In this document: positions 27,030 to 64,000 of the stretch, one piece after another
Layout of the letters: the number at the start of each line of letters is the position of its first letter
Numbering within the stretch: position 1 is the stretch's first letter
Origin: an uncultured Acidobacteriota bacterium
GTDB lineage: Bacteria > Acidobacteriota > UBA6911 > CAINFC01
Direction: 5' to 3'
DNA length: 64,000 nucleotides
NCBI GenBank assembly: GCA_903847975.1
Contig: CAINFC010000322.1
Coordinates: 12,405-76,404 of the forward strand
The notes under the pieces: generated by a model
What the model saw: the letters and a program-made list of their open reading frames with translations, nothing else
Database searches by the model: none
Told to the model about the DNA's origin: nothing
Position numbers and translations under genes: made by a program

Positions 27030-27032
27030 GCC

Positions 27033-27135: not shown

Positions 27136-27141
27136 AGGAAA

Positions 27142-27455
27142 GATAGCTTCGCAAAAAATCGTTTTTTCGTCCGGTTCTGCCGTCCCGCTGGGACTTGCCC
27201 CGTGCGGAAGCCAACCCGGCAATAAATTGCCGGGCTACAATCTTGCCGTCCCTTACGGGACTATGCCTCGGGAAAACAGTCCTGTGCCGGTTTACGCGGG
27301 GCATCCCAAGGCCATGGCGGAGCACAACGCTACAATCTCGGCTATCTCGCCCCGTATGGCACTGACGCAAGTCCCGTAAGGGACGGCAGATTGTGGCCCG
27401 GCACGTGAGTGCCGGGTTGGGGCAGGAGCAACCCAAGTCCCATCGGGACGGCAGA
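27142..27455. mobile_element. Palindrome-rich miniature element, family B, copy 1
   Basis: Repeated GTCCC-N3-GGGAC and CCCGGC-N-GCCGGG palindromes; collinear with the copy at 43430-43674. Confidence 0.75.
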
Positions 27456-27546
27456 ACAAAATGAAATTTCGAAGGATGATGCCCCGGCAAAAAGTCACAC
27501 ATCTTCGAATTTCCGTTGGGGAAGGCCCTATGGGGTTACCAGCGAT

Positions 27547-27702
27547 GATAAATTCGTAAAAACTCACCGTCTCCAGGCGGCAGAAGCTTTCGTCTTTCTT
27601 CCTGTGCGTCCTATCTGTTCACAGGAAGACGGGAAGATCAGGAAGGAAGAAAGAAGCCACACTTGTATTTTGGAAGGGGGAAGGGACTTTTTACGGGTCG
27701 TC
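27547..27702 (+). mobile_element. Miniature inverted-repeat element, family A, copy 2
   Basis: GATAAATTCGTAAAAACTC ... GACTTTTTACGGGTCGTC ends; TTCACAGGAAGACGGGAAGATCAGGAAGGAAGAAAGAAGCCA shared exactly with the copy at 34642. Confidence 0.75.
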
Positions 27703-34641: not shown

Positions 34642-34815
34642 GATAACCCGGCAAAAGCTCCGTCTCCGGGTGACAGACCCTTCCGCTTTTCTTCCCGCTC
34701 TTCCTTATCTTCCTGTAATCCCTGTCTGTTCACAGGAAGACGGGAAGATCAGGAAGGAAGAAAGAAGCCATCCGTGTATTTGGGAAGGGAAAACGGATCT
34801 CTCGCACCCTTATCA
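34642..34815 (+). mobile_element. Miniature inverted-repeat element, family A, copy 3
   Basis: GATAACCCGGCAAAAGCTC left end; pyrimidine tract then purine tract core matching the copies at 26852 and 27547. Confidence 0.7.
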
Positions 34816-34863
34816 AAGAAGCGGCAAAAAGTATTGGGAAGCCCGGAAGGGGCGGAATGATTC

Positions 34864-35013
34864 CAGCCCGGGGTGAAGCCCCGGGAAGCGATGTTGTATT
34901 GCATGTCGAGCCCTGTAAGGGCGGCCTAAAACGAACGAGCAATAGGATATAGGTCGCCCCTACAGGGCTCCGATTTCCGAATGCCATCATTCCCGGGGCT
35001 TCGCCCCGGGCTG
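34864..35013. repeat. REPIN-like element, family C, copy 1
   Basis: 24 bp outer IR (CAGCCCGGGGTGAAGCCCCGGGAA / TTCCCGGGGCTTCGCCCCGGGCTG, 1 mismatch) and 21 bp inner IR (34908-34928 / 34950-34970). Confidence 0.8.
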
Positions 35014-40565: not shown

Positions 40566-40622
40566 AGCGCCTTGCATCCAGCCGGTCTTTCTCTTAAGAT
40601 CCATCCAACAGGAGAATCATCC

Positions 40623-41993: not shown

Positions 41994-42026
41994 GGTGCCC
42001 GGCTGCCGGCCGAAGAAAGGGAGCCG

Positions 42027-43331: not shown

Positions 43332-43429
43332 TTCCGGGAATGGCGTGACATGCAGCCTTTCCATGTCTGTGGGAAGACCGGCGGACCATGAACGATTTGC
43401 ATCGGCGGGTGGAAGGATCGCTTATTCAT

Positions 43430-43674
43430 GATGACTTCGCAGTATATCGTTTTTTCGTCCGGCTCTGCCGTCCCTGACGGGACTTTGCTTCGGAATAAAA
43501 GTCCTGTACCGGTTTACGCAGGGCTTGCCAAGGCCATGGCGGAGCCCAACGATACGATATCCGCTATCACGCCCCGTGTGCCACACATGCAAGTCCCGCA
43601 AGGGACGACAAGAGTATAGCCCCGGCACGTGAGGGCCGGGTCGGGTCGGGGGTAACCCAAGTCCCATCGGGACG
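43430..43674. mobile_element. Palindrome-rich miniature element, family B, copy 2 (followed by a family A fragment at about 43688-43720)
   Basis: Shares blocks ATCGTTTTTTCGTCCGG, CCAAGGCCATGGCGGAGC, AAGTCCCG.AAGGGACG, CCCGGCACGTGAG.GCCGGG and AACCCAAGTCCCATCGGGACG with 27142-27455. Confidence 0.75.
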
Positions 43675-43763
43675 TCATATCATTATCCGCCTTCTTCCCG
43701 ATCTTCCCGTCTTCCTGTGTAAGCGGGTGCCGGAGGATGAAATTTTTCACCTGCTTCCCCTAT

Positions 43764-45858: not shown

Positions 45859-45914
45859 TTCCTTGTCTTTGATAAATTCCGATTGGTTGGATGGTCCGAA
45901 TTGATTCCTGCCGG

Positions 45915-47240
45915 TCATATGTGCCAGGGGCTGCGCATGGGGCGGGACAGCAACCGGCTGGCTTGGGGATCATCCAGGAGGGTCTCGGTGTCCGGATCCC
46001 AGCGCAGCTTGTGGCCGGTCTGCATGGCGATCTGCCCCAGCCATCCGGGGGTCGCGGAGCGGTGTGCGGTTTCCGCCGGGCAAAGAGGCACCGCGCGGGT
46101 TTTGACGCATTGGATGAATTCCGCAAAGTGGCTGGGGGAGCGATACAGCTGTATTTCGCCCGGGCCGATTTTCTCCCGCAGCAGGCTCTTGGGATTGGCG
46201 TCCATGCCGCTGCGGTCCACCCAGACCCAGCCGCGGTCCCCGATCCATTTGGTCCCGCTCTTTATTTCCGGGTAGCCCCCGGCCAGCTTCATGGTGATTC
46301 CGTTGCGATAGCGGGTGTGAACCATGTAGCGGGTGGCCGTATTCCAGAGCCCGCTGCGGGGATAGGTTCCCTGTCCCTCGACTTCGATCGGTCCGGTCCG
46401 GTCCAAATCCAGGCCCCAGTGGGCAATATCCAGGTGGTGCCCAACCCAGTCAAGGACCTGGCCGCCGCCGTAATCGAGGATCCAGCGCCAGTTTTTGTGC
46501 ACCCGTGCGGGACAGTACGGAGCCCAGGGGGCCGGCCCCAGCCAGCGGTCGTAGTCCAGGACAGGCGGCGGGGGGCCGGCCTGTTCCTGTCCGGCGGTCC
46601 GGCCGAAGTCGGTGTGCCCCTCCGGCAGGCCCACTTCCACTTTCTGCACCTGACCGATGCGCCCGTTCCGGACCAGCTCGCAGGCAAAGCGGAAATGGCT
46701 CTGGGACCTTTGCCAGCTGCCGGTCTGCCAGACGCGACCATAGCGCTTCACCGCATCGCAGATGGCTTTTCCTTCCGTCCAGTTATGCGCCAGGGGTTTC
46801 TCGCCGTAAATATCCTTGCCCGCGCGGGCAGCGGCAATGGCGGGGATGGAGTGCCAGTGGTCGGGCAGCCCCAGAGAGACCGCATCGATGTCGGTGCGGG
46901 AGAGCAGTTCCTCGAAATGGTGAAAGGTGGCGCAATCCTCGTTCCCGTACTTGCGGTTGACCAGGTCCTGGGCATTCTTCAGATGGTCCTTGTCGATATC
47001 GCACACGGCGATCACCCGCACGTCGCGAAGCTCGAGAAAGGCCTCCATGTTGGACGTGCCCTGCCAGCCCACGCCGATGCAACCCAGGTTCACCCGACTG
47101 GAGGGGGAAGTCGCCCCGTCGCGGCCCAGGACCGATGCGGGCAGGAGCGTCGGGAAACCGAGGCCGGCAGCCAGGGTTCCCGCGGTTTTTTGGAAAAATT
47201 TCCTTCGGCTGGAAGGATTCGATGGTGCGGGCATAATCAT
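45915..47240 (-). CDS. Gfo/Idh/MocA family oxidoreductase with Tat signal
   Basis: AAGGAG RBS, ATG 47240; SRRKFF Tat motif; LGCIGVGWQG, PDHWH, YGEKPL, WQTGSWQRS, DWVGHHLD. Confidence 0.94.
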   Translation of the reverse strand: MIMPAPSNPSSRRKFFQKTAGTLAAGLGFPTLLPASVLGRDGATSPSSRVNLGCIGVGWQGTSNMEAFLELRDVRVIAVCDIDKDHLKNAQDLVNRKYGNEDCATFHHFEELLSRTDIDAVSLGLPDHWHSIPAIAAARAGKDIYGEKPLAHNWTEGKAICDAVKRYGRVWQTGSWQRSQSHFRFACELVRNGRIGQVQKVEVGLPEGHTDFGRTAGQEQAGPPPPVLDYDRWLGPAPWAPYCPARVHKNWRWILDYGGGQVLDWVGHHLDIAHWGLDLDRTGPIEVEGQGTYPRSGLWNTATRYMVHTRYRNGITMKLAGGYPEIKSGTKWIGDRGWVWVDRSGMDANPKSLLREKIGPGEIQLYRSPSHFAEFIQCVKTRAVPLCPAETAHRSATPGWLGQIAMQTGHKLRWDPDTETLLDDPQASRLLSRPMRSPWHI

Positions 47241-47357
47241 GCGGCTCCTTTTGGCTACGTGTAATACAACCTGCTTTTCCGGCGGGGCGCCCCGCGGCAC
47301 CTTACCGAAGAAACGAATGAAATGTAATGAAAAACGCGGCAATAATCAAGGAGAAGT

Positions 47358-49237
47358 TCATGGCCGCTGCCGGTTTAGCCAGAGGTGCGACCGCGGCGGC
47401 AGGCGAACCGTACCGGTTTCTTTCTCAAAAAGGATCCCCTCGCCGGGATCGGAGGCCGGAGCCAGGCCGGCAGCGCCGGGCCCGGAAAGGCGCAGGGAGG
47501 CCGGGGCGCGGTTATAGTTGCACAGAAAAAGAGAAGCATTCCCCAGCGGCTGCATGGTTACCCGCGCGGGGCCCTCCATGTCGATTCCCAGTTTCTGATG
47601 GAAGATCCGGCGCACCGTGTTGGACCAGGCTTCGGGGATTTCCAGCAGGCCCAGCTCCCGCGGGCAGAGCAGGACTTCGCCAACGGCGTCGAAATCCTCC
47701 TGGGAAAAAGTCTTTCCGTTCAGAACGTAGAATTTTGTCCCCTGGCTTTCATGTTCCAGCAAAAAGGGAATTTCTTTTTCTCCGGCGCGGGCCACCAGCA
47801 GCGCCTTGGCCGGTCCGGGCTGGATTTCCATGGCTAAATCCAATCCGTGGGGTACCTCCACCGCCTGGCGGCCGAGGTAAACCCGGGTGGCGCGCACCGG
47901 TGCCGGGCGGGCGGGCAGCCGAACGCCGGCCCAGGATGCGATCTGGGGCCCTTTTTCCGCCTGCGCCAGGAATCCCGTGGTCAGGATGACGATGGCGCGG
48001 CTGCGGACTGCGGACTGCAGCCGCTCGAAAACATTCCGATCGGCGGCGGCCTGGGTGGGAAGAAAAATAACGTTCTCCTTTTCGGGAAACCGGGCGGTCG
48101 GAATCAGGGGGATGCCGAGCATGCCCAGGTAATCCATCAGGTAAAGGTCGCTGCCGGCATCGCTGTGCGGCGGCTTGTAGGAAGGAATTCCGCGCACCGG
48201 ATCCTTGCGGACCGCAGCCGCCAGCCGTTTCAGCTCCGGCGTCGACCGCGTCAGAAGGGCGCCTCCCGGGTGTCGGCCCAGCACGTCCCCGTAGTGGAAG
48301 ATCACGATTTCCTCCGCTCCTCCCAGGACGGTCTGATAGGCCTGTTCCACGAAATCGATCCCTTCGCAGTCCCCATGATCGAACCAGGCACTGGTCAGCT
48401 TGTCGCCGGCCAGCGACCGCATCCAGCGGAAGCCGACGAAACCTTCGTAGGGCTGGACGAACCCGTAACGCTGGGTATACTGCCCGCGGGTTTCGGTCCC
48501 GACCCACACCTGGTCGAACCGGGCCGGTTTGCGGACCACATCGTACCCGAACAGGTGAAAGCGATCGTACCACTGGGGGTATTTGATGATGACCCTGATT
48601 CCCGGGTGGGCCTCCTTGGCCGGGCGGATCAGAACCTGCTGGGCCACTTCCGACAGAAGGTCCATGCGATACTGGGACCAGCTGCGATCCTGGCGGGCGG
48701 CCTGGGATTCGGGGCTGGTGTCTCCGCTGCACAGGAAGTCGTCGATCACGTACTCGTCGAACAGCGGCGCGGTGCTGCGCATGACCTTTTCCAGGTCCTG
48801 GCGGGTTTTGGGATTCTGCCAGTTCAGCCAGTCCAGTTTTTCGTTCTGCCGCACCCCGAAGTCTTTCCCGGGCACTGTAGCGATACCGCCCATGACCCGG
48901 AATCCCTGAGCCTGAAAAAAGTCGCGGGCCTGCCGGAGTTTTTCCACCGGGACCACCAGGCCGCTGCGGTACGATTCCAGGATCACCCGGTCCACGCCCA
49001 GCTCGCGCAGCCGGTCCACGGCCTGTTGTCGCCCTTCCTGGTCCGCGGGAAGCGCATTTACGGAATGGGCGGTAATGTAAATGCTGAAGCGCAGATCGGC
49101 GGCGCGGGTCTGGAAAATCATCAGCAAAAGAAGGCAGGCGCACAGCGGCCGGACCACGGGCTGCACCAGGCCCGGGGCATGCCGTCCGTTGCTCCGCGAC
49201 CGGCTGGTTTCGGGGGGGGTGGAGAATAGTGTCTGGA

Positions 49238-49241
<4 letters not shown>
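47358..49241 (-). CDS. Secreted hypothetical protein, probable TIM-barrel glycoside hydrolase-like domain plus C-terminal domains
   Basis: Probable TTG start overlapping the upstream stop (TTGA) with AGGAG RBS; signal-like [15 protein letters not shown]; IDDF, IKYPQWY, VGTETR, WFDH barrel-like motifs. Confidence 0.6.
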
Positions 49242-53041
<3,800 letters not shown>

Positions 53042-53062: not shown

Positions 53063-54997
53063 TCATTTCCCCAGAGCACGCTCGATGTCCAGCAGCATGG
53101 TAACTCCGGCCGAAAGCTTGGCGATTCCCAGGATATAATCGGTGTTGACCGAGGAGCCGAAATCCGGGGTGTCCTCCACCTGCTCGCCGGTGACATCACA
53201 GACTTCCAGCACCGCATCGACAATTACCCCGATCTGGATCGAGCCGCTGAGGCCGGCGATTTCCGTAACGATGATGCAGGTCCGGTCGTCATATGCGGTG
53301 GGCGGAAGTCCGAATTTCAGGCGCAGGTCGACAATGGGAATCACCTTGTTCCGGAGGTTGATGATTCCCTTCATGTAGGCGGGCATCTTGGCCAGCGGGG
53401 TAATGGTCATCATCTGGATGATCTCGCGCACATCCATGATGGAAACCCCATACCTCTCCGTTGCCAGGCGGAATACCAGGTATTTTCCCTCCCGGCTTGC
53501 CAGCACACTGGCCAAACCTTCGGAGGGCTTGGCGGCGGCCGTTGTGATCGTGCCCTCGGATTCTTTCGTGGTACGGACTTCCGGGGCGGTAGGCAGCATT
53601 TCGCGGACGTCCATCCCTTTTTTCCGGAATGCGGCATCGGCAAACCGCAGGTCGACAAATTTCTCCAGGTCGATGATGGCCCCGATATCCATTTTGGCGG
53701 TCATGTATCGCTGGATCCGGTCCAGATCTTCCAAAGTCGGATACAGGTTTCCGGTGCGGATGCCCTTCGGGTCGGTCAGCACCTGGTGGATCAGGTTGGA
53801 GGTCAGCCCGAGCTTTTTCTGCGGATCGAGGAAGGAAACCGCGATTTCCGAGGAAGGCAGCGGGTTGTCCATGATAAACCGGCCGGCGTCGATGAGCTGT
53901 TCCGTAAATTCATGAACCGTATCGGTATTCCGGTCAATGAATTCCTTGCGGAATACGAACACGCAGCAGGGGTGGTTATCCCAGATCTCGCTGCTGAGGA
54001 TCTGCCGTTCGGCAATGCCGGAAGCCACGGCCCGAATCCCGATCGGTTCAGCCACCATGAATCCGCAGATATTGGCGTTTTCAGCCATGAATTCCGGCAT
54101 ATGAATGGGGGCCACGACGTCGAAGAGGACATTGACCGCTTCCTTGCCGGAAACGCCCGGGCGAAGGCCCATTTCCGTGAAGTACTTATGGGCCAGCATG
54201 TTGTGAATCGACATTTTGTAGGGGATCAGGAAGGCCTTGTGCTTGAAGAACTGCGGGTAAGGCTTGCGGTATTCGGTGGACCGTGTGCGGACCATGGTGC
54301 TACCGTTGCGGTGGGTAAAAAGAGTCAGCCGGATGGGCACACCATAGTTGAAGAGGTCCATGGCGGCAGGAGCCAGAATGCAGGCGGCATCGACATCCTT
54401 TTTTTCCAGAGCGTCCTGGACCATGTTCCAGTTGGGCAGGCACTGGGTTTCCAGGCTGTAGGTGTGCGATCGGACCTGGCCGGTCTCCAGGTGGTGTTTC
54501 AGGACGCCCAGGGCCAGATGGTCCGTGATCTGGATATGGGCCACCCGGAGGATCGGGCGACCGTCTGCGGTGGTGGTTGCCAGCGCTTTGGCGGGCTGAG
54601 CGGGCTCGGTCCGGATTCCCAGTATTTCGTCGATTCGGCGCTTGAGCTCGTCGGGCAGGAAAGGCTTGGCAACCACCGCGGAGGCCCCGGCGTCCATGGC
54701 CTCCTTGATGTGCTGCTTGTCGCCCTGTCCGGTGGCCATCAGGAAAGGCATCTGCCGATAGTCAGGGTTCTTTCGGAGCCACTGCAGCAGCTCCATCCCA
54801 TCCTTGCGTGGCATGGCCCAGTCGCTGATAACCAGGCGGATATCCTCGTGCGCGGCCAGCTTTTCCAGGGCATCTTCCCCATCCTGGGCCTCCACGACGA
54901 CCGGGTATCCGATCTGGGCCAGAATTTTGATTTCCATGCGGCGCATGGTCGGTGCGTCTTCGACCAGGAGAATTTTGACGGTGGGAGATGGATTCAT
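53063..54997 (-). CDS. Fusion protein: CheY-like REC + NrtA/CmpA/NasS-type solute-binding domain + CheW
   Basis: ATG 54997; KILLVED...ISDWAMP...ATG...AKPF; ITDH, NW, ILAP, HRNGS, SIHN, VAEP, HPCC; YLVFRLATERYG...KGIINLRNKVIPIVDLR...GVIVDAV. Confidence 0.9.
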   Translation of the reverse strand: MNPSPTVKILLVEDAPTMRRMEIKILAQIGYPVVVEAQDGEDALEKLAAHEDIRLVISDWAMPRKDGMELLQWLRKNPDYRQMPFLMATGQGDKQHIKEAMDAGASAVVAKPFLPDELKRRIDEILGIRTEPAQPAKALATTTADGRPILRVAHIQITDHLALGVLKHHLETGQVRSHTYSLETQCLPNWNMVQDALEKKDVDAACILAPAAMDLFNYGVPIRLTLFTHRNGSTMVRTRSTEYRKPYPQFFKHKAFLIPYKMSIHNMLAHKYFTEMGLRPGVSGKEAVNVLFDVVAPIHMPEFMAENANICGFMVAEPIGIRAVASGIAERQILSSEIWDNHPCCVFVFRKEFIDRNTDTVHEFTEQLIDAGRFIMDNPLPSSEIAVSFLDPQKKLGLTSNLIHQVLTDPKGIRTGNLYPTLEDLDRIQRYMTAKMDIGAIIDLEKFVDLRFADAAFRKKGMDVREMLPTAPEVRTTKESEGTITTAAAKPSEGLASVLASREGKYLVFRLATERYGVSIMDVREIIQMMTITPLAKMPAYMKGIINLRNKVIPIVDLRLKFGLPPTAYDDRTCIIVTEIAGLSGSIQIGVIVDAVLEVCDVTGEQVEDTPDFGSSVNTDYILGIAKLSAGVTMLLDIERALGK

Positions 54998-55100
54998 ATT
55001 CCGCGCTCTGCTTCCTGAAAAAAGAAATTGTATGGTTAAATAAAAAAGACGTTCCCAGAAAAAGGTCTGCGATATATAAGTATACAATCTTTGAGCGCAT

Positions 55101-55832
55101 ATGCCAGACCATCGTCAACATCGCGGAGTCCACCCGGAGGACCGCTCCCTTTGGAGTCCGAACCGGCTGCCGTTTTTACAGTCGGCGGTGCAGGATATGT
55201 CGTGGCTTTTAGGCCATGGGTATGCTTCCAAGTCCGTCCTGAAGCTGGTGGGGGATCGTTACAACCTCCATGCCCGGCAGAGGGAAGCGGTTTCCCGCTG
55301 CTCCTGCTCGGAGCAGCGGCGTCAGGCCAGAGGGAGCAGGCAGCTGAGCAGCGAGGCGGTCCGCGGCAGACCGCTGCTGCTGGATGCCTTTAACGTGATT
55401 ACGACCGTGGAAGTGGCTTTGTCGGGAGGCGTGCTCCTGGCCGGCAGGGACGGCTGCCTGCGGGATGTGGCCGGGGTCCACGGCACCTACCGGGAGGTGG
55501 AGGAGACGGTACCGGCGATTTTGCTTCTGGGCGGCTTTTTACAGGAATTGCAGCCATCGGGGTGCTGCTGGCTGCTGGACCAGCCGGTTTCCAACAGCGG
55601 CAAGCTGCGCGGAATCGTGCTGCATCTAAGCCGGCAGCAGGGGTGGGGACACACTGCCGAGCTTTCCCCCGATCCCGACAAGGTCCTGATTCGCGGATCC
55701 GAAGTGGTGGTCAGCTCGGACAGCGCCGTGCTGGACGCCTGCGGCCCCTGGTTCAATCTGGTCCGGGCGGTGGTGAAGGCCCATGTGCCGGATGCCTGGA
55801 TTATTCCTCTCGGCTCCTGCGGCGCGGGGTAG
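55101..55832 (+). CDS. DUF434 domain protein
   Basis: LL.HGY.....LKLVGDRYNL..RQR; LLDAFNVITTVE; DGCLRD; LDQPVSNSGKL; SSDSAVLD. Confidence 0.88.
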   Translation: MPDHRQHRGVHPEDRSLWSPNRLPFLQSAVQDMSWLLGHGYASKSVLKLVGDRYNLHARQREAVSRCSCSEQRRQARGSRQLSSEAVRGRPLLLDAFNVITTVEVALSGGVLLAGRDGCLRDVAGVHGTYREVEETVPAILLLGGFLQELQPSGCCWLLDQPVSNSGKLRGIVLHLSRQQGWGHTAELSPDPDKVLIRGSEVVVSSDSAVLDACGPWFNLVRAVVKAHVPDAWIIPLGSCGAG

Positions 55833-55836
55833 CCGC

Positions 55837-55967
55837 TTTTCTCTTCCTGATCTTCCTGTCTTCTTGTGAAAAAATCGGAATCACAGGAAGATAAGGAAGA
55901 AAGGAAAGCCGGGAAGAAAAACGAAAGAGCCTGCCGCAAGGAGACGGGGACTTTTTGCGAACCAATC
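55837..55967 (-). mobile_element. Miniature inverted-repeat element, family A, copy 4 (one end truncated)
   Basis: Right end GACTTTTTGCGAACCAATC; core TTCCTGATCTTCCTGTCTTCTTGTGAA...TCACAGGAAGATAAGGAAG. Confidence 0.65.
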
Positions 55968-56005
55968 CGGTTGAATGACCGGCAAAAAGCCATGGAGGCT
56001 GTTTC

Positions 56006-56935
56006 TCAAAGTCCGAAGCGGTGAAGGACCGGCTCGCTCCCGGCAGAAGCTTCGCGGGCTGCCAGGATGCGGATGCGAGGGTGCCGGCGGTGAAAGGCGG
56101 CGATTTCCTCCGGGGGCATTACCATGAACGCAGTGGAAAGGGCATCCATCATGGCTGCATTTCCGGGCAGCAGGGCGTCCGTGGCCTGCATCTCCTCTTC
56201 CGGTCCGGGTGCAGGTGTTTCCCTGTCGGCCCAGACCCACACGGCTCTTTTTCCCTGCAACGGGTTTCCTGTCCTGGGGTTGATGATATGCCCGCCTTTT
56301 TCCAGCCCGGAACCGCTGAATACGATGTGGCTGGCCTCCATGCGAAGGAGCTCCCTGGGTGGGTCGGCCGGCCAGGAGAGCCGCAATCCCCAGCCTTGCT
56401 CCTTCTCCGGCGGATCGAGAGCCAGAACCGAACTTTGCCCGCCATGAACCAGGAACCGGCGGATCTCCCAGTCCAGAAATTCTTCGGCCAGGCAATCGAT
56501 TGCATATCCCTTGCCGATGGCTCCAAAATCCAGGCGCAGTCCGGGCGCCAGAATTTCGGCGGCCATATTTTCCGGATCCAGAAGGATCGACTCCATGCCG
56601 CTTCCCAGGGTGACGTCAAAAGCGCCCCCGGTTTCCAGGTAGGCCCGGTTGGCCAGCTGCAGGCATTCCACGGTGGATTCTCCCAGAATCACCCGCTCAC
56701 CCACTTCTGCCTGGCAAAGGCGGGAGACGTCGCTGTTTTCCACGAAGCGGCTCAACTCCTGCTCGAGGCCGTCCAGCCGTCGAAAAGCCCTTTTGGCGGC
56801 CTGCCGGGCGTACTCCCGGTCCGGCAGGGAGATGAACACCTGGAACAGGGTGTTCATGGCCCCGTGGGTGAAGCAGTGGGCCGGCGGCCTTTCCGCGGTT
56901 GCTTCTTCCGGCGTGGGGTCGTCCTCGTTCCCCAT
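56006..56935 (-). CDS. apbE: FAD:protein FMN transferase (ApbE family), divergent, no signal peptide
   Basis: HGAMNTLF, SDVSRL, GAFDVT, LDFGAIGKGYAID, GGQSSV, GHIINPRTG, DALSTAFMV; ATG 56935. Confidence 0.9.
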   Translation of the reverse strand: MGNEDDPTPEEATAERPPAHCFTHGAMNTLFQVFISLPDREYARQAAKRAFRRLDGLEQELSRFVENSDVSRLCQAEVGERVILGESTVECLQLANRAYLETGGAFDVTLGSGMESILLDPENMAAEILAPGLRLDFGAIGKGYAIDCLAEEFLDWEIRRFLVHGGQSSVLALDPPEKEQGWGLRLSWPADPPRELLRMEASHIVFSGSGLEKGGHIINPRTGNPLQGKRAVWVWADRETPAPGPEEEMQATDALLPGNAAMMDALSTAFMVMPPEEIAAFHRRHPRIRILAAREASAGSEPVLHRFGL

Positions 56936-56945
56936 GGCGTTGCGG

Positions 56946-58547
56946 TCAGGGTTTCCTTTCACCCTGTTCCTCCGCCTCGCGCCGGAGATAATCTTCCCAG
57001 AGGGACCGGGCCACGTAGCCCCGGACCTCCACCTGCGGCCGGAGCTCGGTGTAGCTTTCCAGCATGCGCATGTAAAGCTCCCGCTCGCCGGGAGGGGGAA
57101 TCTCGTACAGCTTATGCACCACACCCGCCTCCATGTCCGGCGTGGCCAGAATCAGCGGGGCGTTGGCGGCCTGGTCCGAAAATCCGGTCCACCAGCGCGC
57201 TTTGGGAAAACGCCGCAGATACCAGGGGAGCGGCCAGAGGTTTTCCCGGCTGTAGACCTGTACCGGCATGCCGATACCATCCGGATGGGCTTTGGCGATG
57301 GCCTCGACTCGGCGGACGATGCTGAAAACTCCCGGACCGGTATGGGCGTAGACGAAAGGATTGCGGGGATCGGCATCCATCGGAAAGCAGGCGCGCCAGG
57401 ATTGCCAGCCAAGATGCCCGGCTCCGAGGAGAAACAGCCAGATCACTGCTCCCCGGTACCAGGAAGCCGGGAAGAGGCGGTAAAGCCGGATGGTCCCGAC
57501 ACCGGCCAGCAGGATCCACCCCAGCCAGAACTGAATCAGGCACCAGGGGGTTTTGTAGGCGATTGCGGCATAAAGGGCTGTCAGAAAAATCGTGTAAAGG
57601 CCCAGGAATCGGAGCAGCGTCCGGTCCAGGTCCACCCGCGGATGGCGGCTGAGGCTCTCCCATAATCCCAGGCAGCCGAAAAGAAAAATAAAGCCCTCTG
57701 TCCACACCGGTCCACCGGGCTCCCGGAAAAACAGAATGGTCTGCAGGTAATAGTACCAGGGGTGGGTATGGAGGGCCGCGTCGTGGATCCGCACCAGATA
57801 AAGGAAATAGGCACGAACCGAGTCGATGACCCCCGGCCAGTGGGAAAAGAAGGAGCTGTAGAAAACAACGGAGCTCAGCAGGGCGGCGAGCAGGAAGGCG
57901 ACCAGGTGCCGGCTTCGCCAAAAGGGGGCGGGATGTGCCGGGGACGGGTCCGCTGCCGGTCTACGGACGCATATGACCAGCGAGGCGGCTGCGGCGGCCA
58001 GGGACAGGCAAAAGGTCTCCTTGGTGGCATGCGAAAGGCCGAGCGCCAGGCCCGACAGAAGCAGCCAGCCGGGACGCGCGGAGCGGAAAAACCGGTAGCC
58101 GCAGGCCAGGAAGGCGCAACTGAAAAAAAGCAGCAGCATTTCCTGGATATAGTATCGGCTGTAATAAGCCATGACCGGGGAAACAGCCAGCAGGCAGGAG
58201 GCGGCGGCTACAGAGGGAAGCCCCAATCCGGACTTCCACAGCAGGAGGAGGGGGACCAGCAGCAGGCCGAACAGGGCCGGCACGGACCGCAGGAGTGCTT
58301 CACTCAGGTCGGTGTAGCGGTGAACTCCGCGGATCCAGGCGGGAAGGAGGGTGAAATAATTCAGGGTGGGTCCGTGGTACTCGCTGGGATCGTACCGGTA
58401 CCCGCCCCCCTCGAGGAGCGTCCCCAGCTTGTCAGCGTGCACCGCTTCGTCGCAGTGCATGGGCCGCCGCTCCAGCCCGGGAAGACGGAGCAGGGCGGCC
58501 CATGCCGTGGACAGCAGAATCAGCAGCCAGAAAGCGAGGTTTTTCAT
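56946..58547 (-). CDS. TIGR03663 / Agl23-like GT-C membrane glycosyltransferase
   Basis: RPMHCDEAVH, YRYDPSEYHGPTL.Y, YYSRYYIQE, ATKET, HPWYYY, YKTPW, WPLPWYLR. Confidence 0.85.
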   Translation of the reverse strand: MKNLAFWLLILLSTAWAALLRLPGLERRPMHCDEAVHADKLGTLLEGGGYRYDPSEYHGPTLNYFTLLPAWIRGVHRYTDLSEALLRSVPALFGLLLVPLLLLWKSGLGLPSVAAASCLLAVSPVMAYYSRYYIQEMLLLFFSCAFLACGYRFFRSARPGWLLLSGLALGLSHATKETFCLSLAAAAASLVICVRRPAADPSPAHPAPFWRSRHLVAFLLAALLSSVVFYSSFFSHWPGVIDSVRAYFLYLVRIHDAALHTHPWYYYLQTILFFREPGGPVWTEGFIFLFGCLGLWESLSRHPRVDLDRTLLRFLGLYTIFLTALYAAIAYKTPWCLIQFWLGWILLAGVGTIRLYRLFPASWYRGAVIWLFLLGAGHLGWQSWRACFPMDADPRNPFVYAHTGPGVFSIVRRVEAIAKAHPDGIGMPVQVYSRENLWPLPWYLRRFPKARWWTGFSDQAANAPLILATPDMEAGVVHKLYEIPPPGERELYMRMLESYTELRPQVEVRGYVARSLWEDYLRREAEEQGERKP

Positions 58548-59257
58548 TTGGCCGGCCGGCCAAACACCTCGACTTCCACCATATGGTTCAGCTCATTGGC
58601 GTTATTGCCGTTGCTGTAAAGGCGCACGTAGCGGGCTTTGGCCCCCTTGGCATCGATCAGCTTTCCTTCGGAGGTTTCCACGTAATTCATCTGCTTGCCG
58701 GCGCCCAGGCCGGAGGTGTTGTCATGGTCGTTGTTGAAAATCGTGCGGACGTTGCTGGTGAAGTCGCGGTCATCGGCCAGCTGCACGACAACATCGAAAT
58801 AAACCCGTGGGGTTTTGTGGAAATGCCAGACAACCACGGCAAAAATCTCGTGAGCGGCGCCGAGGTCCACGGTTTCGTTCTGCAGGCCCGGCCCGAATTC
58901 CACGAAGCTGCCGTCTCCGGCCGATTTGTCGCCGTCGGTGAGCATCTCAATTTCCCCGATGGTGGGTTCCTTATCGCTGGCAGCGACCTTTTTTCCCTTG
59001 GAGATCAGGACAACGCCGGCCGGGGCCAGGAAGGGTTCCCTCGGCTTTCCGAGAGGTTTTTCCAGGTTGGGTACCTTGAGGTTCTGGGGCGTTCCTTCGA
59101 ACATCGGCTTGGGCAGCTCCAGCGGAATGGGAACCAGCTTCTCCTGGGCCTGCACCGGGGTCACGGTCATCGATACCCCGAGAAAAAGAAGGGCAAACAG
59201 GCAGGAGCTCAGAACGGCGCCGCTGCCGGCCCAAATCCAGATACGGTTGGTTTTCAT
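58544..59257 (-). CDS. Secreted discoidin / F5-8 type C (galactose-binding-like) domain protein
   Basis: ATG 59257; signal peptide; LTDGDK, VDLG...I..VVVWH, ARYVRLYSNGN, NHMVEVEVFG. Confidence 0.8.
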   Translation of the reverse strand: MKTNRIWIWAGSGAVLSSCLFALLFLGVSMTVTPVQAQEKLVPIPLELPKPMFEGTPQNLKVPNLEKPLGKPREPFLAPAGVVLISKGKKVAASDKEPTIGEIEMLTDGDKSAGDGSFVEFGPGLQNETVDLGAAHEIFAVVVWHFHKTPRVYFDVVVQLADDRDFTSNVRTIFNNDHDNTSGLGAGKQMNYVETSEGKLIDAKGAKARYVRLYSNGNNANELNHMVEVEVFGRPAK

Positions 59258-59385
59258 AGAATTCCTTCTCCTTATGGAATGAAATGGAAATGGATACCTG
59301 ACTTTTAGAATCTCACAGAAAACGGATGGTTGCAAGATAGCGGAAGAAAATCTGAGGCTTGGGCATGCTCCCTGGATGCGGGAAT

Positions 59386-60006
59386 TTACTGCGCCGGTTC
59401 CCGGGCTACCATGGACAAATAAACGAAGATGATTCCCGAAAGGAAAACGCCGAGCGTTGTGTAGCGATGCCAGAATAATAGCGAGTCCTGGCGTTCCGGC
59501 GTCAGCAGCGGGAACAGGGAGATGATGACCGAAACCGCTGCCGGTATGGACAGGGCGACCATGATCCAGAAAAAAATCTTCCGCAGGAGGACGGCATAGC
59601 TGTTGCGCGGGCCCATCTTGGAGGAGAAAGGATAGCGCAGTCTTCTCCAGTCGGCTTCCTGAAAGCGGTTCCGGTGTGCCCAGAGCAGCACGGTGAATAC
59701 CAGGGAGGCGATGTAAACCGGAGCTGCCGTCGCATGGGTCATCAGATCGAAGCCCGTCAGGTGATGTTCCGCCGAGCTGGTTCCGGTATAGGCCGAATAG
59801 GCCAGAACCCCCATGGCTCCGAAGGTGACCGTGTAGGTACCCAGCCGGAAAGGGATCATCAGCAGTGGGGCTCTCGGCTTCCGGCTCCCGGCCATCTTTC
59901 CCTTCTGCAGAAAGAACCGTACCGTCCGGAAGATGCAATGAGCGGCGAGGATTACCAGAACCAGGGTCAGCCAGTTGGCCACGGTAGCGCGAAATATGTT
60001 CTCCAT
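59386..60006 (-). CDS. Membrane cytochrome b-like protein (DUF4405 / Ni-hydrogenase cytochrome b-like)
   Basis: Five hydrophobic helices with His at helix positions typical of heme b ligands (LMTHATAAP, LFWHRYTT, also AHC and WAH). Confidence 0.65.
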   Translation of the reverse strand: MENIFRATVANWLTLVLVILAAHCIFRTVRFFLQKGKMAGSRKPRAPLLMIPFRLGTYTVTFGAMGVLAYSAYTGTSSAEHHLTGFDLMTHATAAPVYIASLVFTVLLWAHRNRFQEADWRRLRYPFSSKMGPRNSYAVLLRKIFFWIMVALSIPAAVSVIISLFPLLTPERQDSLLFWHRYTTLGVFLSGIIFVYLSMVAREPAQ

Positions 60007-60057
60007 CGTTATCTCACTTTGTTTTTCATCCCTAATGATCCGTGCCGGGTCGGGCGG

Positions 60058-62007
60058 TTATTCCGATTCCTTCTCAAAAGAGAGTGCCTTCGACAGGCGT
60101 CCCAGCCCGCGGAATCCGTAAAGCAGGCAGAAACCGGCGAGCAGGCCCAGGGCGACCCAGATGCTGCCTTTCATCCAGGGGCGGTATACGAAAGAATCGC
60201 TCAGCTTGTCGATGTAGGTCCGGTCGAAAGATTTCTGAAACCAGCTCATCTCCCGGACCTGCTGCCGTTCGGCGGCTATGGGCGAGTCGACGGTCACCTG
60301 GCCGTAGAAGAAATTCTCATTTTTGGAGTGGCAGTCTTCGCAGTGGTTGACGCCCAAAGCCTGAGTGGCGGGGCGCACATCGTGGGCCATCGGCCAGTAG
60401 TAAGGCTTGGCCGCCTCGCTCTCCTCCTCCACCAGCCCGTTTTTCATGCCGTTCAGGGCATGCAGCTTGCCGCCGCTGACATAAACGGGGCGCCCGGCGC
60501 CCGGTTCGCTTTTGCCCAGGGCCTCCAGTAGCGAGGCCATCTGGGCAGCCGTCCAATCCGGCCAGCTGCCGTCGGCCGGGATTTTCCACTGTTCCATCAG
60601 CTTGCCGGCCTTCAGGCGGACGGTATCGGGCGGCAGAGGGCTGACTTTCCCGCCGGCTTCATATCCCCAGAAGGAAGGCCAGATCGCCTTATAGGTGCCG
60701 ATTCTGCCGTTTTCGTCTTCGGCCAGCAGGGGGTACTGGATGTGCGGAAGGGCCATCGGGGCCTTGTTGACATTGCGCATACCCAGGAAATGGGTCTGGC
60801 TGGTCTTCTGGTATCGCACCTGGCGATCCGGCCAGGGACCGGAGTGGCATGCCGTGCAGTGCAGCTTGGTAAAATGAATCGAAGGAAACCCCTTGTGGGT
60901 TGGCCGCGGAGCGGCCATGCGTCCGGCGGTCGGAGCCGCAGAGGCCCCGGTTGCCCCTTCGCCAAGATGGCATCCCTTGCAGGTCAGGGCGGCTGCGGCG
61001 GGATCGCCGCCCCGGGCTGATTCGCCTTCATATCCCCGGACGATGCGATGGTCAAGGCTGTTGCGATGGCAGTCCACGCAGGTGAACCCGCGGCTCATGT
61101 GGATATCTTCATCGGCCTTCCAGCGATCCACGCCGAGCTGTGCGGTGTCGGCGTTGGAGTGGCAGAAATAGCAGCGCTTGGCCGGTACGGTTCGAACCAG
61201 GTCAAAGGCCACTTTGCTGCCGGCCCAGAAGCGGCTTTCGGCGTAGGCGGTCTTGGGCTGCTTGTCCCGGAGGCCGTCTTCCACATTGCCCAGCAGATAA
61301 TCGTAAGTGGAAGGCATGGCGGAGGCGCTGCCGGTGACGGCGGCGAGACCGCTGGAGGCGGCCGGAGCCCAGCGGAAATTCTCCCGAAGAATCTGGATGG
61401 CATATTCCGCATGGTCGTAAGCCGGGCTGTCGTCATGGCAGGTCAGGCAGTTGACTTCCACTTCGCCGGACAGCTCCCAGCGCGCAGCCGGATCTTCTTT
61501 CCGGGGGTCGGCATCGGCGCTGATACCTCCGGCCGTCCTTCCGGCGAAAAGGCGCGCAAACTGCCAGCGCGAGATGCCTGCCTCCTGGGGATGAAAGGTG
61601 CCCGGCCAGTGGCGATAAGACAGGGGAATCTGGGTGCCCGTCTGGGCATCGGCGAGAATCCACGGCTGCCCTTTGCGGCCCGGCGGAATGCCATTCTCCG
61701 TGGAGTTGAAATGCCAGCCGTTCCGGATCATGTCGTAGTCGTGACACTCGCCGCAGGTCGTCCGCGTGCTGAAGGGCAACGGCGGTTTGACATCGGGCAG
61801 CACCACGTCGCCCTCGGCAATGCGTAGTGGAATCAGGTGCGCCGGGTGAGCCCGGCTTCCGTCGCTGAAGTCGCCCAGCTTCGGCTTCTTGGGTTCGGGA
61901 GGATTAGCGGGAGGCGGATCGGCTCCCTGAACTCCCCATGCGGCGGCGAAAAAAAGCAGGGTGCTGATCCTGAGGATCCTGCGGTAAGCCTCTCTGTTCT
62001 GCTTCAT
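60058..62007 (-). CDS. Membrane-anchored multiheme cytochrome c, seven CxxCH motifs
   Basis: CGECH, CLTCH, CYFCH, CVDCH, CKGCH, CTACH, CEDCH; N-terminal signal and C-terminal TM helix. Confidence 0.93.
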   Translation of the reverse strand: MKQNREAYRRILRISTLLFFAAAWGVQGADPPPANPPEPKKPKLGDFSDGSRAHPAHLIPLRIAEGDVVLPDVKPPLPFSTRTTCGECHDYDMIRNGWHFNSTENGIPPGRKGQPWILADAQTGTQIPLSYRHWPGTFHPQEAGISRWQFARLFAGRTAGGISADADPRKEDPAARWELSGEVEVNCLTCHDDSPAYDHAEYAIQILRENFRWAPAASSGLAAVTGSASAMPSTYDYLLGNVEDGLRDKQPKTAYAESRFWAGSKVAFDLVRTVPAKRCYFCHSNADTAQLGVDRWKADEDIHMSRGFTCVDCHRNSLDHRIVRGYEGESARGGDPAAAALTCKGCHLGEGATGASAAPTAGRMAAPRPTHKGFPSIHFTKLHCTACHSGPWPDRQVRYQKTSQTHFLGMRNVNKAPMALPHIQYPLLAEDENGRIGTYKAIWPSFWGYEAGGKVSPLPPDTVRLKAGKLMEQWKIPADGSWPDWTAAQMASLLEALGKSEPGAGRPVYVSGGKLHALNGMKNGLVEEESEAAKPYYWPMAHDVRPATQALGVNHCEDCHSKNENFFYGQVTVDSPIAAERQQVREMSWFQKSFDRTYIDKLSDSFVYRPWMKGSIWVALGLLAGFCLLYGFRGLGRLSKALSFEKESE

Positions 62008-62040
62008 GTATGGAATAGGGGGTCTGCAAAGGGTTATTGT

Positions 62041-63399
62041 CTAAACCTCGAACTCGCCGGGCGAGAACTCCAGCTTTATGGCTTTGTCCACTGCCTCGTT
62101 CACTTTCAGGACGGCAACGGCGGTTTCGAATCCGATTTCACCCGGGCAGTTCAGCTTCGCTTTTCCGCGGATGGAATCGAAGAAATTTTCCAGGTGAGGC
62201 TGGTGGTACTTCTTTTTCATGGGGACTGGAATGCTGTAACTCGGCGGGGGAGCGGTTTCCCGAACGTCCAGGGTGACGGCAGGCGCGCCTGCCGCCGGCT
62301 TCGGCTCCTCCTTGGGAGCCAGAATATAGCCCCGCTTCACCCACTGAGCCCAGTCCGGAGCGTTGCCCACATCCCGGTACAGGGCGCCCTTGCCGGCCGA
62401 CTCGCTGATTTCCAGGGTACCTTCGTCTCCCATGAACACTTCAAAGTAGCCGCCGAAGCCGTTGGTGGTCAAAGTCTGGTAGAAGGCACGGACGGTACCG
62501 CGCCTGGTCTGGTATTCGTACACCGTCAGGACGGTATCGTACCATTCGTGGGTGGCTTTGCTGTAATAGTCCGTTCCGCCGCTGGCAATCACCGAGCGGG
62601 GAGGAGTGCCCAGGAACCAGGTGAATATGTCGATCTGATGGGATCCAAGGTCGACGATCGCTCCTCCACCCAGGCCTTTGTACCAGCGCCAGTTGAGAAA
62701 CTGTTCCATGGAGCGGAAGCCGTACTTTTCAAGAGTGGCCTGAGGAATGTGGTACTTCTCGGGCATGGTCAGGAAATCTTTTTTGGCCCGATTCCACTGC
62801 CCGGCGATATTGGTGATGTTGCCGAGGAGCCGGGCCTCCTGGATCAGCTTCTGGTAGGCATGGATGTAACGCGGGTTGCTCCGGCGCTGGTGGCCGATCT
62901 GCAGAAATTTTCCGGTTTCGCGGGAGGTGCGCACCATCTTCCGGGCGTCCTCGAGATTGGTGGACATTTCTTTTTCGCAGTACACGTGCAATCCGGCCTT
63001 CATGCACTCGATGGCGTGTTCGGCGTGCCAGAAATCGGGCGTGGCGACGATCACCGCATCCAGGCGATCCTTCTCCGCGGCCAGCATCGCTTTGTAGTCG
63101 TTGTAGGGCCGGTTTTCGTGCTTGAATTTGGCCAGGCTGCGGGTCATCCGTTTGAGGTTGTACTCCTCCCAGATATCGCAGACAGCAACAAAGCGCACAT
63201 TGGGAATTTGCAGAGCGGCATCCACCAGGACCTGTCCCTGGGCGCCCGCTCCGATCAGGCCGACCTGAATTTCGTTGGTGATCCTGCTCCGGGCCGCCGC
63301 GGGACGAGAGGAAGAGATTAATAGCCCGGCGCCCAGACTGCCGGCCGTTGCCATGAAACCGCGCCTATCCATTGGGTTGATAGAGTTGTTTTCTGTCAT
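62041..63399 (-). CDS. Gfo/Idh/MocA family oxidoreductase with Tat signal
   Basis: DRRGFMATAG Tat motif; GLIGAGAQG, ATPDFWH, YCEKEM, QIGHQRRS, DLGSHQID. Confidence 0.94.
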   Translation of the reverse strand: MTENNSINPMDRRGFMATAGSLGAGLLISSSRPAAARSRITNEIQVGLIGAGAQGQVLVDAALQIPNVRFVAVCDIWEEYNLKRMTRSLAKFKHENRPYNDYKAMLAAEKDRLDAVIVATPDFWHAEHAIECMKAGLHVYCEKEMSTNLEDARKMVRTSRETGKFLQIGHQRRSNPRYIHAYQKLIQEARLLGNITNIAGQWNRAKKDFLTMPEKYHIPQATLEKYGFRSMEQFLNWRWYKGLGGGAIVDLGSHQIDIFTWFLGTPPRSVIASGGTDYYSKATHEWYDTVLTVYEYQTRRGTVRAFYQTLTTNGFGGYFEVFMGDEGTLEISESAGKGALYRDVGNAPDWAQWVKRGYILAPKEEPKPAAGAPAVTLDVRETAPPPSYSIPVPMKKKYHQPHLENFFDSIRGKAKLNCPGEIGFETAVAVLKVNEAVDKAIKLEFSPGEFEV

Positions 63400-63592
63400 G
63401 GTTAATTCTCCTTATCGAACAAATCCAAATATAAATACGCCTGTCTTTTTAAAATGTTACCTTGAACTTGCCTTGCCGAAGCATTGGGATTAAAAACCAT
63501 CTGGCGGAAAACATCAAGAGGATTTTTAGGGGGGAGGAGGAGACTATCCGGAACCCCTGGGGTTCTCGTCTTTTTGCGCCTTTATCGGGGGA

Positions 63593-63657
63593 GGATGAAG
63601 CGGTAATTAAGTCCCCCAACCCCTTTCGGGGTTCTGGGACTTTTTGCCGGGTCATCG
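63593..63657. repeat. Short element with the family A terminal motif and an internal hairpin
   Basis: Right end GACTTTTTGCCGGGTCATC is the exact reverse complement of GATGACCCGGCAAAAAGTC at 27033; internal AACCCC-TTTC-GGGGTT. Confidence 0.6.
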
Positions 63658-63713
63658 GGGAGGACGGAGGTGAAAAGAATCCTGACGGGGCGAAATGCTT
63701 CCCGTTCCGCACA

Positions 63714-63846
63714 AAGCCCCCGGGAAGCGATAGTGTATTGAAGAAAGAGCCCTGGAAGGGCGGCCTAAAGCAAACGGTAAAAAGGATTTAGGTCGCTATC
63801 ACAGGGCTCGGATTTTACAACCTTAACGATATCCGGTCTTTCGCCC
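63714..63846. repeat. REPIN-like element, family C, degenerate copy 2
   Basis: AAGCCCC(C)GGGAAGCGAT.GTGTATTG...GAGCCCTG.AAGGGCGGCCTAAA...TAGGTCGC...ACAGGGCTC collinear with 34876-34975. Confidence 0.75.
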
Positions 63847-63880
63847 CGCGCCAGGCTTGGCACAGGGCGTGCGGGAAGGG

Positions 63881-64000
63881 TTATTTTTTGACCAGACGAA
63901 TGCTGCCGTTGACGGTTTCCAGTTGGATTTTCCCTTTGCCGCTGCCCAGGGAACCGCTCATCTCTTTTCCCACCAGATGTTTCTTTACCTCGAAAGGAAA
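63881..64000 (-). CDS. C-terminal fragment of a probable DUF4097 beta-strand repeat protein (gene starts outside the window)
   Basis: Manual translation FPFEVKKHLVGKEMSGSLGSGKGKIQLETVNGSIRLVKK*. Confidence 0.7.
   Translation of the reverse strand, partial: FPFEVKKHLVGKEMSGSLGSGKGKIQLETVNGSIRLVKK

Follow-up and report, generated by a model that had tools for sequence, protein, structure and literature searches.

The gene cluster described here lies on a 64,000-nt stretch of DNA (hereafter the window) from an uncultured Acidobacteriota bacterium (contig CAINFC010000322.1), and was initially annotated as a candidate extracytoplasmic redox system combining a Gfo/Idh/MocA oxidoreductase exported by twin-arginine translocation (Tat; here named GfoA), a heptaheme cytochrome c, a membrane cytochrome b and three further proteins, namely a discoidin protein, a GT-C glycosyltransferase and an ApbE homolog, which we refer to together as the helpers (Table 1). 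Six co-oriented open reading frames (ORFs) were read from the ORF coordinates on the minus strand, with intergenic distances of 33, 51, 128, -4 and 10 bp, and a repeat sits 98 bp past the ApbE stop, so that the orientation, the tight spacing and the terminal repeat element of the initial annotation were all recovered from the coordinates and the repeat search. The start of the discoidin-like protein was chosen at the ATG that is preceded by AAGGAGAAGG and lies behind a strong AAGGAG site. A Pfam scan of the six proteins matched the N- and C-terminal GFO_IDH_MocA domains, multiheme cytochrome c families, PMT_2 and ApbE, and returned no match (E<=0.01) for the window membrane protein or the window discoidin-like protein.

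Table 1. Genes and flanking repeat of the GfoA cluster, with positions in the window.
Feature	Position	Strand	Length and basis
GfoA, Gfo/Idh/MocA oxidoreductase, predicted Tat-exported catalytic subunit	62041-63399	-	452 aa; N-terminal DRRGFM Tat-type motif; Pfam
Heptaheme cytochrome c	60058-62007	-	649 aa; exactly seven CxxCH; N-terminal Sec signal, C-terminal transmembrane anchor
FdnI-like membrane cytochrome b, divergent PF01292 family, presumed quinone-reactive	59386-60006	-	206 aa; assigned via homologs
Secreted discoidin-like (F5/8 type C / CBM32-like) protein with conserved Pro-rich linker	58544-59257	-	237 aa; assigned via homologs
GT-C fold glycosyltransferase-like membrane protein (PMT_2; TIGR03663/Agl23 family)	56946-58547	-	533 aa
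ApbE-family FAD:protein FMN transferase homolog without export signal	56006-56935	-	309 aa; PF02424
Intergenic repeat with internal hairpin CTTCCTGTG ... CACAGGAAG	55843-55908		between convergent gene ends

Conservation of the gene set and exchange of the membrane module

One genome per species was scanned for the cytochrome c locus, which gave 345 loci, and the best 80 of these (the cytochrome-type loci) were analyzed; all were from metagenome-assembled genomes except for one single-cell genome. The best 80 loci were distributed over the Acidobacteriota (Bryobacterales, Vicinamibacterales), Planctomycetota (Sedimentisphaerales, Phycisphaerae, Pirellulales), Calditrichota, KSB1 and Omnitrophota. 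A Gfo ortholog with 50-70% identity was encoded directly 5' of the cytochrome c gene in 65 of the 68 loci with enough flanking sequence, and a membrane protein directly 3' of it in 66 of the 68. Where at least 8 kb of downstream sequence was available (47 loci), ApbE was present in 37, GT-C in 35, the discoidin-like protein in 33 and all three helpers in 33. A lack of synteny in other genomes had been named beforehand as the result that would refute the proposed system, and what was found instead is conservation in five phyla at the adjacency frequencies just given. Conservation over several phyla puts the arrangement far outside what chance would produce. The order of the genes varied: cytochrome b is followed by GT-C, ApbE and discoidin in Bryobacterales, ApbE comes directly after the b subunit in several Acidobacteriota with no discoidin or GT-C gene nearby, and 2-6 kb of transporter genes lie between the cytochrome b and discoidin genes in Planctomycetota. 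This variation argues for selection on co-location and not for one inherited, frozen operon.

The usual context of the discoidin-like protein was found to be a sister system with the order GT-C, ApbE, discoidin, GfoA (Tat), DoxX and a second Gfo, GfoB (Tat), which was seen in almost all of ~80 metagenome loci and in several long contigs. In this system, which is commoner than the cytochrome type, both cytochromes are replaced by DoxX, whose family of small membrane proteins is related to the quinone-reactive DoxD. The GfoA proteins of the DoxX type are 57-60% identical to the window Gfo and thereby as near to it as the cytochrome-type orthologs of Planctomycetota, and on one contig (L118) the order ApbE, discoidin, GfoA, cytochrome c was observed. 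Since orthologous GfoA and the helpers occur with either module, GfoA and the three helpers constitute the conserved core and the membrane partner is exchangeable. This exchange is the strongest argument that the job of the module is to link GfoA to the membrane quinone pool, and, because the helpers also accompany orthologous GfoA with DoxX, it indicates that they serve the dehydrogenase and not the hemes or the wire. The initial annotation had the electrons pass through hemes; these are not essential to the system, given that orthologous Gfo and the same helpers mostly occur with DoxX. Two DoxX-type loci on unrelated contigs (L082, L083) also carry FGE-sulfatase and radical-SAM/B12-binding genes a few kb away, and this FGE-sulfatase echoes a fusion of FGE-sulfatase and discoidin domains (P0315) mentioned below.

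The predicted exported dehydrogenase and its proposed electron wire

GfoA matched PF01408 (E=4.7e-20), PF22725 (E=2.3e-13) and PF02894 (E=4.4e-12), and accordingly has both the Rossmann NAD(P)-binding domain and the C-terminal alpha/beta domain of the Gfo/Idh/MocA family. Its Tat (RRGF) and Rossmann (GAGAQG) motifs are conserved in 84 orthologs from both system variants, in which the stretches EKE (142-144) and DLGSHQID (250-257) are invariant; by analogy with the family these may be assigned as the catalytic EKP-type Lys and the D...H motifs. The N-terminus, DRRGFMATAGSLGAGLL, consists of the twin-arginine motif followed by a hydrophobic stretch, and the two arginines are kept in at least 93% of the 84 sequences. 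As the TIGR01409 (Tat) score of 13.1 is below the cutoff of 16.7, the Tat assignment rests on the motif and its conservation. The best NCBIfam matches were to UDP-GlcNAc 3-dehydrogenase, inositol 2-dehydrogenase and the BT_2158 glycoside 3-dehydrogenase, with similarly low scores far under the cutoffs, and the nearest relatives in the PDB (DgpA, GFOR, glucuronide 3-dehydrogenase and GH109) align over the Rossmann half only. The window encodes a second Tat-type Gfo (45915-47342, minus strand; GFO_IDH_MocA_C2, 143 bits on the BT_2158 model), whose gene overlaps by 4 bp that of a HEAT-repeat protein (43834-45918, minus strand, 694 aa); a homolog of the HEAT protein with 37% identity recurs 5' of the cytochrome cluster in 13 other loci.

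In the cytochrome c the seven CxxCH motifs and nine further histidines are all invariant across 19 homologs, and since the nine extra histidines suffice, all seven hemes could be bis-His coordinated. Pfam matches were to Cytochrome_C7 and c3_2. The C-terminal hydrophobic helix was located at 611-629 from the sequence and at 596-647 by AlphaFold2, the model of which (19-sequence alignment) was otherwise unusable, with a mean predicted local distance difference test score (pLDDT) of 46. More than 835 homologs of ~45-54% identity were found, which carry no informative name in any source, and a profile search of PDB sequences with the cytochrome c returned no meaningful relative. A weak similarity to octaheme tetrathionate/nitrite reductases raised the possibility that the cytochrome is itself an enzyme; this was rejected as the main interpretation, the similarity being confined to short heme-motif stretches and the histidines being enough for all-bis-His hemes. 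The cytochromes c and b are encoded as a single ORF of ~800-828 aa in seven loci, mostly of Acidobacteriota (L002, L003, L004, L006, L008, L014 and L047), which explains the many cytochrome c homologs of 780-840 aa. A gene-fusion search on ApbE, GT-C, discoidin and Gfo found none, so that the cytochrome c-b fusions were the only ones.

The membrane protein belongs to a family of which 27 of 33 members match PF01292, although the window protein itself does not, and the family profile matched FdnI, the cytochrome b556 of formate dehydrogenase-N (1kqf_C), with E=1e-8. Almost every member (99-100%) has H91 and H180, which line up with a pair of FdnI histidines that we take to be the ligands of the periplasmic-side heme. 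Position 194 aligns with a third FdnI histidine, presumably a ligand of the cytoplasmic-side heme, and is His in 69% of the family and Phe (F194) in the window. The family has no His where the alignment places His18 of 1kqf_C (numbered as in that alignment). Of the four histidines called for by two b hemes, only H91 and H180 are therefore universal. By these comparisons the protein appears to be a real FdnI relative in which one heme is well supported and the second is doubtful in the window protein. The wire from cytochrome c to cytochrome b that had been proposed initially is thus backed by the natural fusions and the FdnI homology of the b family; the assignment as a membrane cytochrome b stood at the level of the family (FdnI profile, PF01292 homologs), but in the window only the two periplasmic-side heme histidines were found.

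Helper proteins, neighboring genes and repeats

The window ApbE matched PF02424 (E=7.9e-31, 108 bits) and, weakly, ApbE proteins of solved structure. Conserved across 87 ApbE orthologs are DLGxxGKG, SG..KG.HI.xP and STAF, and DLGxxGKG, HIxxP and STAF probably correspond to known ApbE motifs. A search of the longest ORFs for a signal peptide or lipobox found none in the window ApbE or in 43 cytochrome-type orthologs, the latter opening with ~28 hydrophilic residues ahead of the first conserved strand, and the DoxX-type ApbEs inspected (280-337 aa) have no room for a signal. With these motifs conserved and an export signal absent, the cluster ApbE is probably active as an enzyme, but in the cytoplasm; all 87 cluster ApbEs examined lack signal peptide and lipobox and so cannot flavinylate proteins in the periplasm. 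The ApbE gene lies directly 3' of the cytochrome b gene in loci without discoidin and GT-C, and by coordinates it shares 4 bp with gfoA in one locus (L167). Because GfoA, as a Tat substrate, would be the sole cluster protein to fold in the cytoplasm before export, and because ApbE tracks gfoA closely, GfoA is a candidate ApbE target, and we infer that a flavin step, if real, would be cytoplasmic and would most plausibly take place on GfoA before its export by Tat. The top 120 ApbE homologs were all single-domain proteins.

Two ideas on the flavin were discarded: in the cytochrome c, TGAS (position 353) and TGSAS (position 225) were rejected as flavinylation sites for lack of conservation, and a lipid-linked flavin donor that ApbE would supply to GT-C was dropped for want of supporting evidence and because its chemistry is unfavorable. 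Cytosolic ApbEs acting on cytoplasmic proteins are known, and the one of the Klebsiella fumarate reductase is the nearest precedent for the location of the cluster ApbE (PMC12052999). ApbE genes without export signal were excluded from the flavinylation survey of Meheust et al. 2021, which may explain the absence of the system from it. A second ApbE of the window (13509-14414, minus strand; PF02424, 241 bits) is more canonical and also without signal peptide; it has one mandelate racemase/enolase-superfamily gene on either side and a DUF362 protein adjacent (12046-13476, 14468-15853 and 15853-17292), an unusual and apparently cytoplasmic context with no obvious flavinylation target.

The discoidin-like protein has a signal or anchor helix at 14-32 and is the best-conserved member of the cluster (53-84% identity). 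Its assignment was made through homologs with near-threshold matches to F5_F8_type_C_2 (28.3 bits; cutoff 27.8) and precomputed PF00754/PF22633 matches; a PDB search gave a weak match to CBM32 (AlyQ), and the AlphaFold2 model (20 sequences) was unusable, with a mean pLDDT of 47. At least 7,650 homologs were found at E<=0.001, and at E<=1e-30 there were 835 clusters (50% identity). The domain with its Pro-rich linker was also observed in fusions with FGE-sulfatase, WD40 propeller, VIT-VWA and ECF sigma-factor domains (e.g., P0315, P0353, P0379, P0388), and some giant proteins contain up to seven copies of it (P0241, 1691 aa). Being fused to many unrelated domains and occurring in multiple copies, it behaves as a general binding module and not as a redox center. 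The discoidin protein may be a binding or docking subunit.

The discoidin gene overlaps the start of the GT-C gene by 4 bp. GT-C matched PF13231 (E=1.2e-6) and TIGR03663 (174 bits, cutoff 126.25), and a motif of its N-terminal loop, RPMHxDE, is conserved in 62 orthologs, with the acidic DE in the first extracytoplasmic loop; from these scores and this motif it can be classified as a true TIGR03663 member. A GT2 gene lies beside ApbE in 23 cytochrome-type loci, and its product resembles ArnC, AglJ, PpgS and dolichyl-phosphate hexose transferases (polyprenyl-phosphate sugar synthases); no such GT2 was found in the window or in the DoxX-type loci inspected. Together, GT-C and GT2 point to a sugar donor carried on a lipid and an acceptor in the periplasm, and our guess is that the translationally coupled GT-C glycosylates the conserved FEGTPQN linker of the discoidin protein.

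Genes of carbohydrate breakdown recur near the cytochrome-type loci. DUF1080/3-keto-disaccharide hydrolase genes occur in 45 of the 80 loci and TIM-barrel AP_endonuc_2 genes in 12 of them (fused to DUF1080 in L001), and MFS and other transporters are common neighbors, as are extra Gfo paralogs. The same neighbor families (DUF1080, TIM-barrel, MFS and extra Gfo) form the BT2156-2160 pathway of Bacteroides (PMC8121099), and by this analogy the gene context points to glycoside catabolism through keto-sugars. The sugar or glycoside substrate proposed in the initial annotation fits these neighbors. In 28 loci (L005-L081, e.g., L068:4979-6373) a 464-aa multi-pass membrane family without Pfam or NCBIfam match is encoded between the cytochrome b and discoidin genes, and its place is occupied by an MFS transporter in 11 other loci; the 464-aa family may be a substrate or product transporter.

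On the 3' side of the cluster the window encodes a multi-pass hybrid histidine kinase (49238-53041, 1267 aa), a 674-aa protein (53063-55087) with, by eye, a receiver-like N-terminus (response regulator) and a CheW-like C-terminus, and, on the opposite strand, a DUF434/DUF5616 protein (55101-55832). Two long ORFs on the minus strand (47358-49661, 767 aa; 40617-43364, 915 aa) are without Pfam match, and the 767-aa ORF is also without NCBIfam match. The hairpin repeat beyond the ApbE gene occurs four times in the window (26910-26975, 27597-27686, 34691-34797 and 55843-55908) and could possibly be a terminator or mRNA-end element. Rfam matched neither this repeat nor anything else in 55000-64000, and promoter and terminator scans of 55500-64000 gave no excess over chance. 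Short intergenic repeats belonging to several families (45-207 nt, 73-87% identical), some of which contain hairpins, were observed at 26861-27686, 34653-34976, 43430-43682, 55843-55908 and 63638-63815, with copies flanking the six-gene cluster on both sides. The window originates from a lake-water metagenome: the locus is present in only three DNA sequencing runs, all from one such study, and a search of sequencing runs for RNA-seq runs containing it found none.

Relation to known systems and proposed function

The closest known layout is that of FdnGHI, which likewise has a Tat-exported catalytic subunit, a wire on a single C-terminal transmembrane helix and a membrane b cytochrome, to which the one described here is related. 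At the gene level this layout was found in the conserved gene order, the C-terminal helix of the cytochrome c and the c-b fusions. In contrast to FdnGHI, catalysis is assigned to an NAD(P)-type Gfo/Idh/MocA protein and not to a molybdoenzyme, the wire has seven c hemes instead of four iron-sulfur clusters, only H91/H180 are universal in the cytochrome b, and ApbE, GT-C and discoidin have no counterpart. Zymomonas GFOR, which is among the best PDB matches, is also a Tat-exported Gfo/Idh/MocA protein and carries non-dissociable NADP, but only its Rossmann region aligns with GfoA. In GFOR a second sugar substrate serves to re-oxidize the cofactor, and a membrane partner is not known. The LacABC-type enzymes have a flavin adenine dinucleotide (FAD; GMC-type) catalytic subunit and not a Gfo/Idh/MocA protein.

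Further partial parallels come from the literature. The LacABC/ThuAB glucoside 3-dehydrogenases link the 3-oxidation of sugars to cytochrome c and respiration, and as described they have no heptaheme cytochrome, FdnI-like b, DoxX, ApbE, GT-C or discoidin partner (PMC8121099). A Tat-exported periplasmic Gfo with DUF1080, TIM-barrel, second Gfo and MFS neighbors is shared with the BT2156-2160 and Alistipes AL1-5 pathway, whereas published descriptions of the Bacteroides cluster include no cytochrome, DoxX, ApbE or discoidin gene (PMC8121099; 10.1101/2024.03.25.586180). Like the ApbE-dependent extracytosolic systems (Nqr, Rnf, NosR, PplA, DUF2271/DUF3570; Meheust et al. 2021), the cluster has apbE within a set of extracytoplasmic redox genes, but its ApbE is without export signal and an FMN_bind, DUF2271, DUF3570 or NqrB-like acceptor is absent. 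No description of the gene combination turned up in literature searches, and NCBIfam has no specific model for the cytochrome c, the b subunit, the discoidin protein or GfoA, in agreement with the initial statement that a characterized system of this composition was not known. The architecture is that of a periplasmic dehydrogenase wired to quinone, with an unprecedented type of catalytic subunit, an exchangeable membrane module and three tightly linked helpers.

On balance, the cluster probably encodes a periplasmic sugar or glycoside dehydrogenase complex that is attached to the membrane and supplies electrons to the quinone pool. GfoA would fold in the cytoplasm around a non-exchangeable NAD(P), be exported by the Tat pathway and oxidize in the periplasm a hydroxyl of a sugar, most likely at C3 of a glycoside, to a keto-sugar; the two electrons on the bound nicotinamide would pass to the heptaheme cytochrome c, which, tethered via its C-terminal helix to the FdnI-like cytochrome b, would deliver them for quinone reduction. 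ApbE may place flavin mononucleotide (FMN) on GfoA or a co-exported partner before export and thereby allow hydride transfer to be converted to one-electron steps, and GT-C (with the neighboring GT2 in many genomes) may glycosylate a periplasmic component, e.g., the Pro/Thr-rich linker of the discoidin protein. The substrate class of GfoA and the direction of electron flow are inferred.

Several observations weigh against this interpretation. On the BT_2158 glycoside 3-dehydrogenase model (NF058561) GfoA reached 83.6 bits, over residues 12-259 only, against a cutoff of 750 and is therefore not a BT2158 equivalog. Ten of the 47 long loci are without any helper within 10 kb. The AlphaFold2 models of the cytochrome c and the discoidin protein are too poor for judging any contact, and with F194 and no histidine aligned with His18 a transmembrane redox loop of the Fdn type is doubtful here. 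Pfam scans of the conserved cluster proteins found no FMN_bind, DUF2271, DUF3570 or NqrB-type acceptor domain, and no conserved candidate for a Dxx[ST]GA[ST]-type motif emerged from a regular-expression and conservation search of the six proteins and their orthologs; as a recognized flavin acceptor is thus missing, hydride-to-heme transfer would proceed without an obvious mediator. The electron route through flavin that the initial annotation envisaged was consequently not supported, the more so as the ApbEs have no signal. Many of the host genomes moreover belong to the Sedimentisphaerales, cultured members of which are anaerobic fermenters, for which a quinone-linked oxidation is less obviously useful.

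In one alternative, GfoA would work mainly in a redox-neutral glycoside cleavage by oxidation, elimination and reduction (as in BT2158 or GH109) and the membrane module would only reset a cofactor trapped in the wrong redox state, or quinol electrons would drive the periplasmic reduction of a keto-sugar or carbonyl by GfoA as a sink in anaerobes. Many hosts are Sedimentisphaerales or come from sediment and peat and are probably anaerobes; the closest relatives of GfoA with solved structures include GH109 and GFOR, a second Tat-Gfo (GfoB) or more Gfo paralogs are usually encoded alongside it, and the window b subunit, seemingly with a periplasmic-side heme only, suits an electroneutral link better than an energy-conserving loop. 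The exported Gfo enzymes of Bacteroides and Alistipes are thought to recycle tightly bound NAD by reducing 3-keto-glucose, cytochromes being only a speculated alternative (10.1101/2024.03.25.586180). The direction of flow cannot be read from sequence, and a seven-heme protein with a dedicated and sometimes fused b subunit would be a costly device for occasional repair, and we consider a reset or reverse flow unlikely. The helpers could alternatively indicate modification of an envelope glycan, GT2 making a polyprenyl-phosphate sugar that GT-C moves to an envelope acceptor, where Gfo would oxidize or epimerize it in place under the guidance of the discoidin protein; since the periplasm has no NAD pool, the membrane module would then dispose of the electrons. 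The bona fide TIGR03663 GT-C with its conserved DE loop motif and the GT2 adjoining ApbE in the 23 loci agree with this, and the fusion partners of the discoidin domain (FGE-sulfatase, WD40, VIT-VWA and ECF-sigma) are typical of a general envelope or ligand-binding module. It is made distinctly improbable by the absence of GT2 from the window and the inspected DoxX-type loci, by five cytochrome-type loci that have ApbE without GT-C or discoidin beside the cytochromes, and by the catabolic character of the recurring neighbors (DUF1080, TIM-barrel, sugar transporters).

A further possibility is that two unrelated modules simply adjoin, Gfo-cytochrome c-cytochrome b on the one hand and discoidin-GT-C-ApbE with another job on the other, as might be read from the 2-6 kb of variable genes that often part the two blocks, from the occurrence of the first block alone in the 10 long loci without helpers, and from the 128-bp gap and strong ribosome-binding site ahead of the window discoidin gene. 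However, the three helpers remain with GfoA even where DoxX takes the place of the cytochromes, they are kept in several orders (memb-GTC-ApbE-disc, ApbE-disc-GfoA-cytc, disc-GTC-x-ApbE-GfoA-DoxX), and the co-location holds over at least five phyla, which renders this coincidence very improbable. The dehydrogenase interpretation could also be extended: cytoplasmic ApbE might attach FMN to the NAD-containing Gfo, or to a partner travelling with it, before Tat export, giving a two-cofactor periplasmic sugar dehydrogenase, a type not known to be described, with exchangeable quinone modules (heptaheme c plus FdnI-like b, or DoxX) and a GT-C-glycosylated, lectin-like helper subunit. Such a system would occur widely in Acidobacteriota and Planctomycetota of soil, peat and sediment and tie glycan oxidation directly to respiration. 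In this complete form the proposal is tentative and rather unlikely.

The nicotinamide cofactor of exported Gfo/Idh/MocA enzymes is not exchangeable in the periplasm, and how it is re-oxidized is an acknowledged open point of the 3-keto-glycoside pathway (10.1101/2024.03.25.586180). For a periplasmic dehydrogenase linked to quinone, the locus and its relatives would provide a concrete answer, namely a dedicated membrane module that comes in two interchangeable forms. The very highly conserved pair of discoidin protein and GT-C is a second problem posed by the same system. If the proposed function is true, a new type of catalytic subunit would be added to the periplasmic respiratory dehydrogenases, an unrecognized class of ApbE targets that are flavinylated in the cytoplasm and exported by Tat might emerge, and glycan oxidation would be coupled to the electron-transport chains in a large group of bacteria from soil, peat, lakes and sediments.

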